40,004 nucleotides of DNA, taken from IMG/VR virus record IMGVR_UViG_2645727669_000017; one strand, written 5' to 3'. Each line of letters starts with the position of its first letter. The stretch's first letter is position 1. The notes under the pieces were generated by a model. The model did not search any database. It saw only the letters and a program-made list of their open reading frames with translations, and was not told where the DNA came from. The translations under genes were made by a program, and so were the position numbers. This document shows positions 1 to 40,004 of this stretch, piece after piece. The DNA comes from a virus (Duplodnaviria; Heunggongvirae; Uroviricota; Caudoviricetes).

Positions 1-90
1 TTGCCTCCCCCCCGTTGATGGGTAAAATAGCCGCAATTTTTCGTTTTCAACAAGCGCGGCGCGATGCCGCTTACTCAAGAAGAAAGAATT

Positions 91-165
91 ATGACGTTGT
101 CTCCTTATTTGCAAGAGGTGGCGAAGCGCCGCACTTTTGCCATTATTTCTCACCCCAATAATTAA
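91..165 (+). pseudogene. prfC: 5' fragment of the peptide chain release factor 3 gene, truncated by prophage insertion (attL junction)
   Basis: ATG at 91 encodes [22 protein letters not shown], which matches my recollection of the RF3 N-terminus up to the start of the GTP-binding P-loop; it then diverges (NN-stop) into AT-rich DNA at ~156-160. Confidence 0.65.
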
Positions 166-319
166 GCCAAAATTAAAGCTCTTTTACTCTTTCAAAATCC
201 TTTCAATTAATTGAGTTATAATCATATAATTCATTTAATAACATGATGTTATGTTGTTTCTTTGATTGAAAATTCTTTCATGTAACTTTAAATCGATCAG
301 GTTGCTTTCATCAAAAATC

Positions 320-376
320 TGTACATGCGCTTGTACATAATGTACAAAACAGCAGAGGTGTTTTGTTATTTGTACA
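320..376. promoter_or_regulatory. Cluster of four TGTACA hexamers including the perfect palindrome TTGTACA-TAA-TGTACAA, just upstream of the int start; candidate integrase arm-type or operator sites
   Basis: TGTACA at 320, 333, 341 and 371; palindrome at 332-348; AT-rich promoter-like context; int RBS AAGGTGAG follows. Confidence 0.3.
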
Positions 377-385
377 AGGTGAGTA

Positions 386-1609
386 ATGGCGTTGTCTGAT
401 GCGTGGTTGCGTTCAGTCGTTGGAAAGGAACGTGATAAGGTTTTGGTTAAATCCGATCGTGATGGTTTGTCTGTCAGAGTATCACCGAAAGGTCGCGTAG
501 TGTTCCAATATCGTTATCAATGGGCAGGGAAAGGCGAGCGCCTTGATATCGGAACTTACCCGGCAACTGGATTAAAAGAGGCCAGAGAAGAAGTTATCCG
601 TCTTCGTGGTGAACTCGAGTCAAACCGCAATCCACGATTGGTCAAGCAGGTAGAAAAACGCAAAGCTACTGAAGCCATGACGGTGGAGTCTGTGATCCGT
701 GCCTGGTATGCAGCATATTGTGTAAAAAATAAAAAAGGCTCTGAGCAGATACTCCGCTCATTTGAACTGCACCTGTTCTCTAAAATCGGGAGTATCCCTC
801 ACGATGTAGCTACATTGCATGATTGGTTAGAGGTCCTGGAGCCTCTTAGCACTAAGACTCCAGCAATAGCAGACCGATTGCTAATTAACGCAAAGCAGGC
901 CCATGTCTGGGCGTATAAGAGAAAGCTCATTGAAACTCGCCCGCTGTCGGATATCACGGGTAAAGATATGGATATCCGTAAAGGTCAGAAGAAACGGTTT
1001 CTGACACATGATGAAATTAAAATCCTTTATGCTGCGATCGATGGTTCTCGAATGGTTCCTAAATACCGGGCCTTCATTAAACTATTGCTGCATTTTGGTT
1101 GCCGTAGTTCAGAGCTAATTACTGCCCGGGTGGACGATTTTGATTTCATTAATAAAGTATGGACTGTACCACCAGAACGACATAAGACTGGGGAGATAAC
1201 AGGCGAACCGCTAAAGCGACCCATTATTGAACCGGTTGAAGAGCTTATAAAGTACGCTATCTCTATGAACAATGGTTCCGATATGCTTTTTACTAAGGAA
1301 GGAAGCTGGGAACCCGTTGGTCGGACATCATTGCAGTCGCTGCCTTACAATTTAATGCAGTACGCATGGCGGCGTTTGGGGTATCAATTCCCTCATTGGT
1401 CTCTTCATGATTTGAGACGAACAGCACGAACAAACTTTTCTGATCTTACTGAGCCTCATATTGCAGAAATAATGCTAGGTCATAAACTGCCAGGGGTATG
1501 GCAAGTTTATGATAAGAGCGATTATCTAGAAGAACAGCGTAAAGCCTACCAGGCATGGTGGGAGAGAGTTGAATCGATTGTTACTTGTACTAACTCATGC
1601 TCCAATTGA
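386..1609 (+). CDS. int: Tyrosine-type site-specific integrase (P4-like, with N-terminal arm-binding domain)
   Basis: 407-aa ORF; N-terminal LSVRVSPKGRVVFQYRYQ motif typical of the integrase arm-binding domain; C-terminal HDLRRTARTN...Y catalytic region; next to the att junction and reading inward. Confidence 0.9.
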   Translation: MALSDAWLRSVVGKERDKVLVKSDRDGLSVRVSPKGRVVFQYRYQWAGKGERLDIGTYPATGLKEAREEVIRLRGELESNRNPRLVKQVEKRKATEAMTVESVIRAWYAAYCVKNKKGSEQILRSFELHLFSKIGSIPHDVATLHDWLEVLEPLSTKTPAIADRLLINAKQAHVWAYKRKLIETRPLSDITGKDMDIRKGQKKRFLTHDEIKILYAAIDGSRMVPKYRAFIKLLLHFGCRSSELITARVDDFDFINKVWTVPPERHKTGEITGEPLKRPIIEPVEELIKYAISMNNGSDMLFTKEGSWEPVGRTSLQSLPYNLMQYAWRRLGYQFPHWSLHDLRRTARTNFSDLTEPHIAEIMLGHKLPGVWQVYDKSDYLEEQRKAYQAWWERVESIVTCTNSCSN

Positions 1610-1642
1610 TACAGTATGCCCAGCCAGTATGTAATCAAATTT

Positions 1643-1690
1643 GGCAGCCTGCTTTGAGCGTAAAGCGAGAGCTGCCATTATTCTTATATT
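1643..1690. terminator. Two-tier hairpin followed by a T-rich tract between the convergent int and the 517-aa gene
   Basis: GGCAGC (1643-1648) pairs with GCTGCC (1671-1676), with inner stem GCTTT/AAAGC; followed by ATTATTCTTATATTT. Confidence 0.35.
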
Positions 1691-1780
1691 TGAACGCTAT
1701 ACGATTAACTTTTTGACTGATAGATCAACTGGGTTCAGGATACCACCTGCAATATAAGCAGGTGATGGATAAATATATCA

Positions 1781-3334
1781 TTATTGGTCAGGATATTTTG
1801 ATAGTTCAACTTCAAAAGTTGAATTTTTGTTTTTTAGAACATGAACAACACCTTTATAAAGTTGCCGTAATTTATTTACTGCATTTATATCAATGGAAGC
1901 AGGGGAGAATGCTCGGATAAGATTGTTGAAGATTTCCTTGGAGTAAGCAGATTTCTTCTTTTTATCAAGAGAGTCCATTCTTTTAATAATGATTTCTAAA
2001 AGATATGTCTTTTGATTGTTATGCATTTTTTCTGAAGTAATAATCAGATACATCATTTCCCCCAAGGTTTTAGAGGCAAAGAACTCTGGAGATTGCTCTT
2101 TATCTTCTGTTGTCCAGTTATCATAATTGAGGTGTTCTGTTGCTCCTGCCCATATATTACAACGGCTGATTAGCTCATATATTAAATAATCAAATCGCAT
2201 GGGGAACTCTCTATTTACATCTATGCTGCTAGATTTTTCATAGCTCTCAAGTATTTCCTTTAGGAAACAACGATAATACATGAGCCACATATTGTTTTTT
2301 GAGCGTTTGAATATTGCTGTAGATACCATAACATCGAAAAACGTCAATCCAACGAAGATTGGGCATTCCCAACGCTCATCACTACTTGAATAGTAATTAT
2401 CTGGATGATTGTAAAAGCAAGAACTCCCTTTTTGTTTTTTTATGTAGCTAATGACATAATTACCCACAGGTTTCCATATTTCTAAATCTATCGCCATGCG
2501 AATATCATTTAAATAAAAATTAAGCAAGGCATTACTTTCGTCGAGTGCATACTCCCCTGTATATGAACGATTTTGGTTGTCTCGTAACTCCCTATACATA
2601 ATGCTGTTTGGGTTAGATATTAAATACGTAAAGAAATTTGTATTATACTCACAATTATATCTAAGCTGTAAGCAGGTGGCCTTCATAGCTACGTGAGGGT
2701 AAGTATCAATTAGATAATGTGAAAAAACCTTTGATTTCAGAAGATTGGATATATTTAATTGAATATCATTTTGTCTTTTGTCTTCATAAGGGAAAAACTT
2801 TGACATAAATCTCCTGACTTTTTTGAATCGTAATTTTTTTACCTTCTCTTCATCCATTTCAATGGGAGATAATGAAGGGGCTAAGTAATTATGTACGCGA
2901 ACATACCATTTTTTATTGCTGATTATATTGAATAGCTGCTCGTGATATTTATCAAAAAGATATCCTAGTTGTTCTATTTTTTTTGCGCGCAGATATGTTT
3001 CTGAAACACTGATCCAACAGGTAAGGTTTGCTTTTGGTAGTATTTTGCCCTGTACTTTAATTCCAAAAAATATAATTATGATACAAAGACAAGTAAAAGC
3101 CAATGTATCTTCGTTAAAACCGAGTATCCAAGGGATCGGTTTTATCGGGAAAACACTTAGCAAAACCTTAGAATATATAACTGTTAATATTGTTGATATA
3201 AAAAAGATAATGAATACTAAATTAAATTTAGATATGCGTAACCTTAAATCAACACGTCTCTCATCCGTTAAGAGAGTATACCAAGCAATAAGTATGACGA
3301 AGACTGCTAGTAAACCATTGGCACCCATTATCAC
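1781..3334 (-). CDS. AT-rich membrane-anchored protein of unknown function (about 3 N-terminal TM helices plus ~420-aa soluble domain); candidate phage-defence or exclusion gene
   Basis: 517-aa ORF; hydrophobic N-terminus (LLAVFVILIAWYTLL, LVFIIFFISTILTVIY, LAFTCLCIIIIFFGI); N/K/I/Y/F-rich composition and visibly low GC versus flanking DNA; AT-rich promoter-like sequence upstream at 3335-3385. Confidence 0.6.
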   Translation of the reverse strand: MIMGANGLLAVFVILIAWYTLLTDERRVDLRLRISKFNLVFIIFFISTILTVIYSKVLLSVFPIKPIPWILGFNEDTLAFTCLCIIIIFFGIKVQGKILPKANLTCWISVSETYLRAKKIEQLGYLFDKYHEQLFNIISNKKWYVRVHNYLAPSLSPIEMDEEKVKKLRFKKVRRFMSKFFPYEDKRQNDIQLNISNLLKSKVFSHYLIDTYPHVAMKATCLQLRYNCEYNTNFFTYLISNPNSIMYRELRDNQNRSYTGEYALDESNALLNFYLNDIRMAIDLEIWKPVGNYVISYIKKQKGSSCFYNHPDNYYSSSDERWECPIFVGLTFFDVMVSTAIFKRSKNNMWLMYYRCFLKEILESYEKSSSIDVNREFPMRFDYLIYELISRCNIWAGATEHLNYDNWTTEDKEQSPEFFASKTLGEMMYLIITSEKMHNNQKTYLLEIIIKRMDSLDKKKKSAYSKEIFNNLIRAFSPASIDINAVNKLRQLYKGVVHVLKNKNSTFEVELSKYPDQ

Positions 3335-3385
3335 CTCTGAATAAGCTACATTTAGACATTCATAAAAAACTTTAATACTATGTAC

Positions 3386-3580
3386 TTATTGTAACAAATT
3401 CTGGGTGTTTTCATCAGAATTATCTGCATCATCCTGCACCATTAATTTTGGTGCTTCGCTGGTGGTATTTGCAACATCTACTTCAGGCACAGAGTAGACA
3501 GTCTGATTAGGTTTAGCTCTGTGCCATAGATGTGTTAACTCACATCTGAACGAATACGTATTACTCAATAACTCCCGCAA
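3386..3580 (-). CDS. Small acidic hypothetical protein downstream of xis (uncertain)
   Basis: 64-aa ORF overlapping the xis-like stop by ~20 nt; no recognisable motif. Confidence 0.2.
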   Translation of the reverse strand: MRELLSNTYSFRCELTHLWHRAKPNQTVYSVPEVDVANTTSEAPKLMVQDDADNSDENTQNLLQ

Positions 3581-3755
3581 ACCTGTATATCTTGCGTGAT
3601 GCCCATTTATTTGGGCAGGATTTAATATCAGGATCTGGGAAGTCAGGCCTGTATTTCTGGCCAGTTCTCCTGTTTACGCTGTTCCAGCGAAGAACTGTCG
3701 ATACTGAAACGCCACAGAAATCAGCGACTTGTTTAGTTGTCATTAAGTTGTTCAT
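3561..3755 (-). CDS. xis: Excisionase / AlpA-family HTH DNA-binding protein
   Basis: 64-aa ORF with TTKQVADFCGVSVSTVLRW HTH and a downstream FPDP...KW motif characteristic of AlpA/Xis-type proteins. Confidence 0.5.
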   Translation of the reverse strand: MNNLMTTKQVADFCGVSVSTVLRWNSVNRRTGQKYRPDFPDPDIKSCPNKWASRKIYRFAGVIE

Positions 3756-4936
3756 TACTTCACCTCCTGCGGCGGCTCCGGTAGCGGCATCCAGTGGGTT
3801 ACTTTCGATGCCGGTTCTTCCCCATTGTCAGTAACTGCCCACCATTTGTTTCTCGAACAATCGTAATACCCTTCGAAGGTATCGCACTCAGTCCAGCCGT
3901 AAGACTTACCCCAACACCAAACATACTGTTTATCGTTCGGCATTCGCTCACTACAGCTTATCCAACCATCCGGAGTTACCGGAGAGTTGCCATTCACAAG
4001 GTCAGCTCGAACATATAGCGTGTCATCATGGTGCTGATTGTGGCTGCACCACGTTAATTCGCTTAACTCGCCATCTTCTGGCCATACTCCAGCTGTTTGC
4101 AGCCAGATATGGGCTGGCGCATCTTGGCAAGGTGTATTAACTGGCAACTTGTAAGTTTGGCTTACAGGTTGGCTACCCTGAAGCATGGCCGCGCGGCAGG
4201 CATTCCACCCCTTCACATAACCGAACGCCATCAACTGATCATTCATGGCGGGCAGCATTGTGTGGGTCGTACTGATTTCCTCCGGCACTACTGGCGATGG
4301 CTGTTTGGCTTCTAAATCAGCAATTCTGTCAACTACGGCATCGACAGCATCTGAAAAACTGAAACAGTTACTCCACTCCGGCCAGTTCCCGGTTGCTGCA
4401 AAGTACATATCTGCTAAAGCAGATTCAGCATGGTCACGCTCGTTAATGAGTTGCTCTTCGCTTTTCTCCAGTTCAGCAATACGCTTCTCTGCGGCTTCTG
4501 CCCTGCATTGTTCCCGTTGGAACATTTTGTGGGTGCGGTCGAGCGCCTCAAGTCTGGCTGCTGATGTTTTCTCTTCTGCTTCAAGCTCAACGCGCAGCTT
4601 CCCAACCGTAAGCGCAATATCCTCGTTCTCCTGGTCGCGGGATTTGATGTATTGCTGGTTTCTTTCCCGTTCATCCAGTAGTGCCAGCGCAACATTTGGA
4701 TTAAAAGCAGCAATAAATTCAGCGTTTGCATAAGCCTGAACATCTGTTTCAATCAGGCAGTTAACATGACATTCCGCAATCACGCCACCGGGTTCTCCTT
4801 TCCATTTTTGACAAACAAAAACTCCTGTTAAATTGCCGTGTTGGTTAACAGATGTATGCCCTACGATGTAGCTTCCTTTAGTTGCTTTCTCTGCCTTTTC
4901 ACGCAGTGCCTGATAGTCAATTGTCATTCTCGCCAT
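3755..4936 (-). CDS. Ea22-like early protein with central coiled coil and C-terminal DUF551-like Cys/Trp-rich domain
   Basis: 393-aa ORF; coiled-coil region (ELEAEEKTSAARLEALDR...); C-terminal WCWGKSYGWTECDTFEGYYDCSRNKWW resembling the DUF551 domain of lambdoid Ea22-like proteins. Confidence 0.55.
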   Translation of the reverse strand: MARMTIDYQALREKAEKATKGSYIVGHTSVNQHGNLTGVFVCQKWKGEPGGVIAECHVNCLIETDVQAYANAEFIAAFNPNVALALLDERERNQQYIKSRDQENEDIALTVGKLRVELEAEEKTSAARLEALDRTHKMFQREQCRAEAAEKRIAELEKSEEQLINERDHAESALADMYFAATGNWPEWSNCFSFSDAVDAVVDRIADLEAKQPSPVVPEEISTTHTMLPAMNDQLMAFGYVKGWNACRAAMLQGSQPVSQTYKLPVNTPCQDAPAHIWLQTAGVWPEDGELSELTWCSHNQHHDDTLYVRADLVNGNSPVTPDGWISCSERMPNDKQYVWCWGKSYGWTECDTFEGYYDCSRNKWWAVTDNGEEPASKVTHWMPLPEPPQEVK

Positions 4937-39467: not shown

Positions 39468-40004
39468 ATGCGTAAAGTTTGTGCAGCAATTTTGTCCGCA
39501 GCCATTTGTCTGGCCGTATCCGGTGCGCCTGCATGGGCGTCTGAACATCAGTCCACACTGAGCGCGGGGTATCTTCATGCCCGGACGAACGCTCCCGGTA
39601 GCGATAATCTTAACGGGATTAACGTGAAATACCGTTATGAATTTACGGACACGCTGGGGCTGGTGACGTCATTCAGCTATGCAGGAGACAAGAATCGCCA
39701 GCTTACCCGTTACAGCGATACCCGCTGGCATGAAGATTCCGTGCGTAACCGCTGGTTCAGCGTAATGGCGGGGCCGTCTGTGCGCGTGAATGAATGGTTC
39801 AGCGCGTATGCGATGGCGGGTGTGGCTTACAGCCGTGTGTCGACTTTCTCCGGGGATTATCTTCGCGTAACTGACAACAAGGGGAAAACGCACGATGTGC
39901 TGACCGGAAGTGATGACGGTCGCCACAGCGACACCTCTCTGGCGTGGGGAGCTGGCGTGCAGTTTAACCCGACCGAATCCGTGGCCATTGATATTGCTTA
40001 TGAA
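39468..40004 (+). CDS. lom: Lom outer-membrane protein (Ail/Lom family), 3' end beyond the window
   Basis: ATG 39468 with GAGAGG RBS; signal peptide [24 protein letters not shown]; GINVKYRYE and later motifs match lambda Lom as I recall it; runs off the window end. Confidence 0.85.

Follow-up and report, generated by a model that had tools for sequence, protein, structure and literature searches.

The closest described counterparts of the element studied here are phage cdtI, reportedly described by Asakura et al. in 2007, and the SXT/R391 integrative conjugative elements (ICEs), reportedly described by Hochhut and Waldor in 1999. [quoted passage not shown] The 5′ end of this gene is the insertion site of SXT/R391 elements (PMC2791158), which supply it with a new promoter and a new N-terminus (PMC8409611). 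For a Stx1 phage in prfC it was described in 2007 that integration changes a short N-terminal region of RF-3, with the question of expression left open by Ogura et al. (PMC2323221), and Stx1a and Stx2c phages have been reported at prfC in clonal complex 119 (PMC10132054). In the comparative study by Bobay et al., prfC is listed as 'disrupted' by prophages (PMC3603311), a label that is a trap for annotation, since prophages at this site do not simply destroy the gene. Integration into prfC with a replacement start is already known, and the finding presented here is correct but ordinary; its value is that of a clean and checkable example for annotation.

Our analysis covered a stretch of 40,004 nucleotides, which we refer to as the window. 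Positions 1-385 very probably represent the attL of a lambda-like prophage that inserted into the 5′ end of E. coli prfC by tyrosine-recombinase site-specific recombination, the phage attP bringing along a replacement start for the gene. The original prediction had interpreted the left end as an integration into prfC, and this interpretation is supported. According to the mechanism we propose, the exchange would fall in the stretch that encodes Ile-Ile-Ser-His-Pro, immediately ahead of the GTPase P-loop. The P arm of attP would consist of a DinI-like gene, a ribosome binding site (RBS), an ATG and 21 codons mimicking the RF3 N-terminus, and would be followed by a 14-bp core, ATTATTTCTCACCC, then by the P′ arm and then by int. 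As products, one would expect an attL in which the native prfC promoter, RBS and 22 codons, closing after two phage codons to give a 24-aa remnant, point at int, and an attR beyond the window in which the 5′ end contributed by the phage reads in frame into codon 23 and the rest of prfC, yielding a 528-aa hybrid RF3.

The integrase gene (386-1609, plus strand) encodes a tyrosine integrase of 407 aa of the P4/IntSXT type that reads into the prophage. The protein contains the domains Arm-DNA-bind_3 (PF13356), Phage_int_M (PF22022) and Phage_integrase (PF00589), all above gathering scores, matches the phrog_1 integrase family and is 97% identical in amino acids to the integrase of cdtI. Core, P′ arm and P arm, the latter with its DinI-like gene and prfC mimic, are likewise the same in cdtI, as is the position of the excisionase gene, and the lambda-type late genes are partly shared. 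The Stx1a and Stx2c phages at prfC show 96-98% DNA identity to the window over P′ arm and int. In contrast to the cdtI and Stx phages, the window showed neither cdt nor stx cargo, and its early and late modules are mosaic. We furthermore scanned for relatives of the integrase in one genome per species, including Trabulsiella, Pantoea, Xenorhabdus, Kangiella and marine MAGs. Among relatives with 83-46% identity, a truncated RF3 N-terminus was located about 200 nt upstream in 10 of 13 loci, all of them breaking at CACCC; the integrase family tracks the prfC site. Orthologous integrases with 83-63% identity and the identical prfC break point were observed in three IMG/VR loci (L037, L041 and L042) and in loci from Trabulsiella, Pantoea and Xenorhabdus (L045-L049), and the P′ arms of these elements differ from that of the window (CCACGAATCACCCC..., CAATCATTGCTCTGG...).

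Of the features of the prfC-targeting integrase cluster, arm-binding and catalytic domains, insertion at ...ATT ATT TCT CAC CC and an excisionase ORF are present in the window, and the element is a member of the cdtI-type prfC-targeting phage group that works like SXT at the att site. With respect to SXT/R391, the break in prfC falls at the same CACCC in marine gammaproteobacteria that carry distant relatives of the integrase (46-50% identity). A protein search gave no match to IntSXT by name, and cluster look-ups of six relatives of about 50% identity returned generic names; a relationship between the window integrase and that of SXT is nevertheless suggested by the published cluster (PMC8138268) together with the conservation of the break point. 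The element in the window, unlike SXT/R391, is not conjugative but a tailed phage, with genes for terminase, portal, tape measure and J. The SXT/R391 ICE family is defined by an Int near-identical to IntSXT and a conjugative backbone with tra and setCD/setR (PMC2791158), and the element does not belong to it, since it is a tailed phage without such a backbone. No tra or setCD genes were found in the annotations of relatives, and lambdoid phage genes are present throughout in window and relatives. The dusA-specific elements (e.g. IMEVchUSA3) follow the same strategy of entering the 5′ end of a conserved gene and providing a new promoter and an altered N-terminus, and here a lacZ fusion showed expression (PMC8409611). 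As target gene and integrase family differ, they are an analogue and not a relative.

The left end of the window carries host DNA up to the attachment core. Positions 1-155 are 100% identical to the uninterrupted E. coli prfC locus and comprise the yjjG-prfC intergenic region and the first 22 prfC codons, which bears out the original reading of these codons as the RF3 N-terminus up to the P-loop. Identity to prfC is lost after position 155 and the DNA from 157 onward is unrelated to it, while base 156 is C in the window and G in native prfC (CCG to CCC, Pro either way). BLAST searches with a 400-base query revealed matches over this region in 5,425 of 5,426 complete E. coli genomes; the match was mostly confined to 1-155, where the uninterrupted genomes are annotated as 'prfC: peptide chain release factor 3'. 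The same prfC′-int junction was found in 701 complete E. coli genomes, which cover at least 80% of window positions 1-400 and are annotated at the junction with a 'hypothetical protein' next to a 'tyrosine-type recombinase/integrase', and a junction with identical bases was seen in about 30 prophage contigs of IMG/VR. Because 701 independent complete genomes carry it, the left junction is confirmed as real, far beyond chance or artefact.

The host part upstream of the gene (1-90, plus strand; 100% identical to uninterrupted E. coli genomes) contains the yjjG-prfC intergenic region with the native prfC RBS and a promoter-like site, TTGCCT-16-TAAAAT at 1-28, whose 9/12 match to the consensus is not proof of a promoter. 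The end of yjjG lies directly left of position 1 in the relatives. Translation and genome matches identify the ORF at 91-165 (plus strand) as a truncated prfC′ consisting of 22 native RF3 codons, two phage-derived codons (Asn-Asn) and TAA. Its ATG is intact, as had been predicted, and is preceded by GAAGAAAGAA, but it is located at 91, one base to the right of the implied position 90. The 22 RF3 codons are followed by AAT AAT TAA with the stop at 163-165, and the 75-nt ORF is nested in a longer mechanical ORF (64-165). GC content changes from 0.48 (1-150) to 0.25-0.29 (151-375). The short Asn-Asn-stop tail, the AT-rich phage DNA and the inward-reading integrase were all recovered as the prediction had described them. 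No tRNA genes were found in the window. The 69 nt equivalent to the prfC stub in the genomes of F8704-2 and HN257 are a partial pseudogene according to PGAP. PGAP names the stub a partial 'hypothetical protein' pseudogene and not a prfC fragment (91-159 in the window, 47674-47742 in F8704-2 and 1004-1072 in HN257), which is a further trap for annotation at this site.

An alignment of attL, attR and two attP sequences and a survey of the junction across loci placed the attL core at 142-155. These 14 bp are the same in attL, attR and phage attP and, as far as BLAST matches reveal it, in attB. The attL of the window reads GCC-ATTATTTCTCACCC-CAATAA and the attR of F8704-2 reads GCA-ATTATTTCTCACCC-GGACGCC, with host C against phage A at position 141 and phage C against host G at position 156. 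Judging from this comparison, strand exchange must have taken place within 142-155, or slightly to the left, and not at about 156-160 where attL had been predicted. An attR from IMG/VR (L040) has the host C at the equivalent of position 141, i.e. GCC and not GCA left of the core, so exchange or mismatch correction can reach slightly leftward. A second copy of the core is absent within the window, and since the core is not repeated there the window's own attR must lie outside the 40,004 bases.

Between the junction and int lies the P′ arm of the phage attachment site (156-385, plus strand; 230 bp), which is AT-rich (25-29% GC) and contiguous with the P arm in cdtI and in phage 2H10. It starts with CAATAATT, an inverted copy of the Ile-Ile codons AATTATT. 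Across attP this gives a perfect 7-bp inverted repeat, AATTATT/AATAATT, with 9-bp spacing, and the two halves may be candidate core-type integrase sites flanking the overlap region. The tail of the stub reads Asn-Asn-stop because AATAATTAA mirrors the Ile-Ile codons. Four TGTACA motifs (starts at 320, 332, 341 and 371; 320-376) are located just upstream of int, and these 57 bp hold four of the nine such motifs in the 40-kb window. In the relatives, the P arm ahead of the hybrid prfC contains similar motifs, and the repeat families are common to the P and P′ arms of the cdtI attP. By analogy with other arm-binding integrases, the TGTACA cluster might consist of arm-type binding sites for the integrase. 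Integration leaves the native prfC promoter region and RBS directed at int, 220 nt downstream. A terminator-like site was not found in window positions 1-450, and an RNA fold of positions 150-400 consisted of AT-rich hairpins with no canonical terminator. With no terminator-like site between the native prfC RBS and int, host read-through transcription of int is possible in the lysogen.

The opposite prophage end can be seen in relatives. F8704-2 and HN257 share both ends, with yjjG, the prfC stub and int on the left and a DinI-like gene, a 1,587-nt prfC and osmY on the right. The predicted matching core at this end was found in the attR sequence of F8704-2; the attR of HN257 was read from annotation only. 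The attR DNA of F8704-2 reads ...caattATGACAAGCCTTTTGGCCGCAGAGGTAGCGAAAAGAAGAACCTTTGCAATTATTTCTCACCCGGACGCCGGTAAA... and its uninterrupted translation is a 528-aa hybrid RF3. Specifically, the attR-side prfC has its own ATG and 21 phage-derived codons, which are joined in frame to codon 23 onward, and is annotated as an intact 1,587-nt prfC; in the annotation of HN257, both the DinI-like protein and the protein accession of the hybrid prfC are those of F8704-2. From residue 8 to its C-terminus the hybrid can be aligned with E. coli RF3 (PDB 2H5E), and it differs from the native protein in the first 7 residues only (MTSLLAA replacing MTLSPYLQ). The junction of DinI-like gene and hybrid prfC is present in 692 genomes, near the 701 with the left junction. 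The original prediction had also raised the alternative of an intact prfC elsewhere; F8704-2 and HN257 carry prfC in one place per record and no second, native copy. By this measure, about one in eight complete E. coli genomes (about 13%) would have an RF3 with a phage-encoded N-terminus, probably under phage-supplied expression signals.

The two arms are joined in free phages. In the free-phage attP of cdtI (NC_009514) and 2H10 (NC_049950), the DinI-like gene and the prfC-like start lead to ...GCAATTATTTCTCACCC, then to CAATAATTAAGCC... and then to int, and replacement 5′ end, core and the P′ arm of the window are contiguous. This order matches exactly the prediction of the Campbell model from the attL of the window and the attR of the relatives. 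The prediction that the phage supplies a replacement prfC 5′ end at attR therefore holds for the relatives, with their 21 phage codons and intact 1,587-nt prfC, and for the free-phage attP, whereas the window's own attR lies beyond base 40004. It probably resembles that of the relatives, with the DinI-like gene on the minus strand, ...ATGACAAGCCTTTTGGCCGCAGAGGTAGCGAAAAGAAGAACCTTTGCAATTATTTCTCACCCGGACGCC... leading into prfC, and then osmY. The window itself stops in lom, and its last 53 bases matched more than 120 lambdoid lom genes in a scan of viral contigs.

We argue that the replacement 5′ end has probably been selected to yield a working RF3, because the mimic differs in synonymous positions only, natural RF3 proteins vary in the same residues and the hybrid ORFs are intact. 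Over the EVAKRRTFA codons upstream of the core, 8 of 27 bases differ between the phage mimic and native prfC, all of them synonymous (among them two changes of CGC to AGA), and none of 200,000 random placements of eight substitutions kept the EVAKRRTFA peptide. The synonymous-only pattern could also result from capture of the prfC 5′ end of another species and not from selection inside the phage. When the P arm was compared by short-word BLAST with the regions upstream of native prfC in E. coli, Trabulsiella, Pantoea, Xenorhabdus and marine relatives in search of such a donor, only chance-level matches of 9-17 nt were obtained. In Pantoea, Xenorhabdus, Kangiella and others, natural RF3 proteins differ in both sequence and length over the first 7-10 residues and are invariant thereafter. 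The hybrid ORF was intact in all three relatives read, F8704-2, HN257 and JMF1; in the last of these a deletion took part of the P arm, and hybrid residue 7 is Thr. By analogy with SXT, which sets a precedent for the promoter, the hybrid prfC is probably transcribed from a phage-supplied promoter and functional.

A reading in which the insertion is real but prfC is inactivated is improbable. The hybrid ORF at attR would then be unexpressed or poorly expressed because the authentic promoter and RBS have been removed, and lysogens would be functional prfC knock-downs. The upstream region of the hybrid ATG would fit this reading in that it contains only weak promoter-like matches, the best candidates matching 8-9/12 consensus positions and none being a convincing sigma-70 promoter. 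The tandem rare AGA-AGA at hybrid positions 11-12 points in the same direction, as do the openness of Ogura et al. about expression of the non-essential prfC (PMC2323221) and the classification by Bobay et al. (PMC3603311). Since prfC is non-essential, the persistence of lysogens does not prove that the hybrid functions. Inactivation is difficult to reconcile, however, with hybrid ORFs that stay open in every relative read, with a mimic whose eight differences are all silent, and with natural N-termini that vary over just the residues that are replaced. In addition, a purine-rich AAAGAGA is located 8-14 nt upstream of the hybrid ATG, and SXT supplies both promoter and N-terminus at the very same site.

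Doubtful, and less probable than inactivation, is the possibility that the prophage retunes prfC, with RF3 made from P-arm signals at a lowered or SOS-responsive level and the orphaned native promoter feeding constitutive Int. Two CTG-N10-CAG LexA-type boxes (CTGTGTTTGTATACAG, CTGTATGAATAAACAG) are located in the P arm between the DinI-like gene and the hybrid prfC (at about 4450-4500 in F8704-2, designated L001, corresponding to 920-968 in L002). The best promoter-like site in prfC sense (TCTACA-16-TATTAT, 182 nt upstream) contains one of these boxes as its spacer; the second box is part of the promoter-like site of the DinI-like gene, and the two sites are arranged back to back. In JMF1 the deletion occurred between two CTTTGGCT repeats, and both LexA-type boxes are gone while the hybrid prfC is intact. 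Hybrid codons 11-12 (4262-4257 in F8704-2, minus strand) encode Arg-Arg as AGA-AGA versus CGC-CGC in native prfC. AGA is among the rarest codons in E. coli, and tandem rare Arg codons near the start can depress translation. Given the promoter-like site with its LexA-type box and the tandem AGA codons, the level of RF3 could be lowered or SOS-responsive. If this were true, the retuned RF3 level could alter termination fidelity and quality control in lysogens.

Two further explanations concern the left end itself. That the 22 codons are the phage's own prfC mimic, and the left end the attP of an unintegrated phage or an attR, might be suspected as phages of the cdtI family carry a prfC-like 5′ segment beside the core, but this is refuted by the native sequence match and the attP comparison and has next to no probability: the phage mimic differs in sequence (ATGACAAGCCTTTTGGCCGCA...GCGAAAAGAAGAACCTTTGCA), whereas the window has the native version and, ahead of it, 90 bp of the native yjjG-prfC intergenic region that show 100% identity to genomes lacking the phage. 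The mosaic structure of the window relative to its best left-end match might suggest a chimeric assembly or the remnant of a degraded prophage, but this is just as implausible: a junction with identical bases is found in about 700 complete genomes and some 30 IMG/VR prophage contigs, and the window contains intact int, xis and a full lambda-type morphogenesis module.

Further into the prophage, an ORF at 3561-3755 (minus strand) encodes a candidate excisionase (recombination directionality factor) of 64 aa with a hit to the phrog_1553 excisionase family (E 8e-35) and weak HTH_17/MerR matches; cdtI and 2H10 likewise have a gene annotated 'excisionase' at this position. An AT-rich ORF (about 30-35% GC) of 517 aa with hydrophobic N-terminal segments is located between int and xis (1781-3334, minus strand); its sole match was phrog_13820 (unknown function), with none in Pfam, NCBIfam or PADLOC. 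Elsewhere the same slot holds unrelated genes, a 2,133-nt ORF in cdtI and a 720-nt ORF in 2H10 and HN257, and it looks like a position for variable cargo (moron or defence?). The late region of the window encodes lambda-type terminase, portal, protease/capsid fusion, tape measure, J and lom. Positions 15005-40004 matched phages vB_EcoS-569R4, PhiR55_1, mEp460 and cdtI at 95-97%, in agreement with the annotation of HN257. With this late module and the int-xis module at the prophage end, the element has the characters of a lambda-like temperate siphovirus.

No complete genome of the collection contained the whole window. The closest match to the prophage as a whole was HN257 (L057), which covers 84% of positions 1-25000. 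F8704-2 matches 100% over positions 1-400 and is colinear with the window over 1-3992 only (99.6%, BLAST). We also considered whether the window is the F8704-2 prophage itself, which was rejected by a base-by-base comparison with 26,942 mismatches. The module of int, att site and cargo shared over 1-3992 is thus combined with unlike late genes, which indicates that one prfC-targeting module is common to different phage bodies. The same int/att module is carried by lambda-like phages, by the converting phages for Stx1a, Stx2c and Cdt-I and by a prophage body of the contractile-tail type. The morphogenesis genes of the F8704-2 prophage are of this contractile-tail type (tail sheath, baseplate J/gp47 and GP46), while the late genes of the window are lambda-type.
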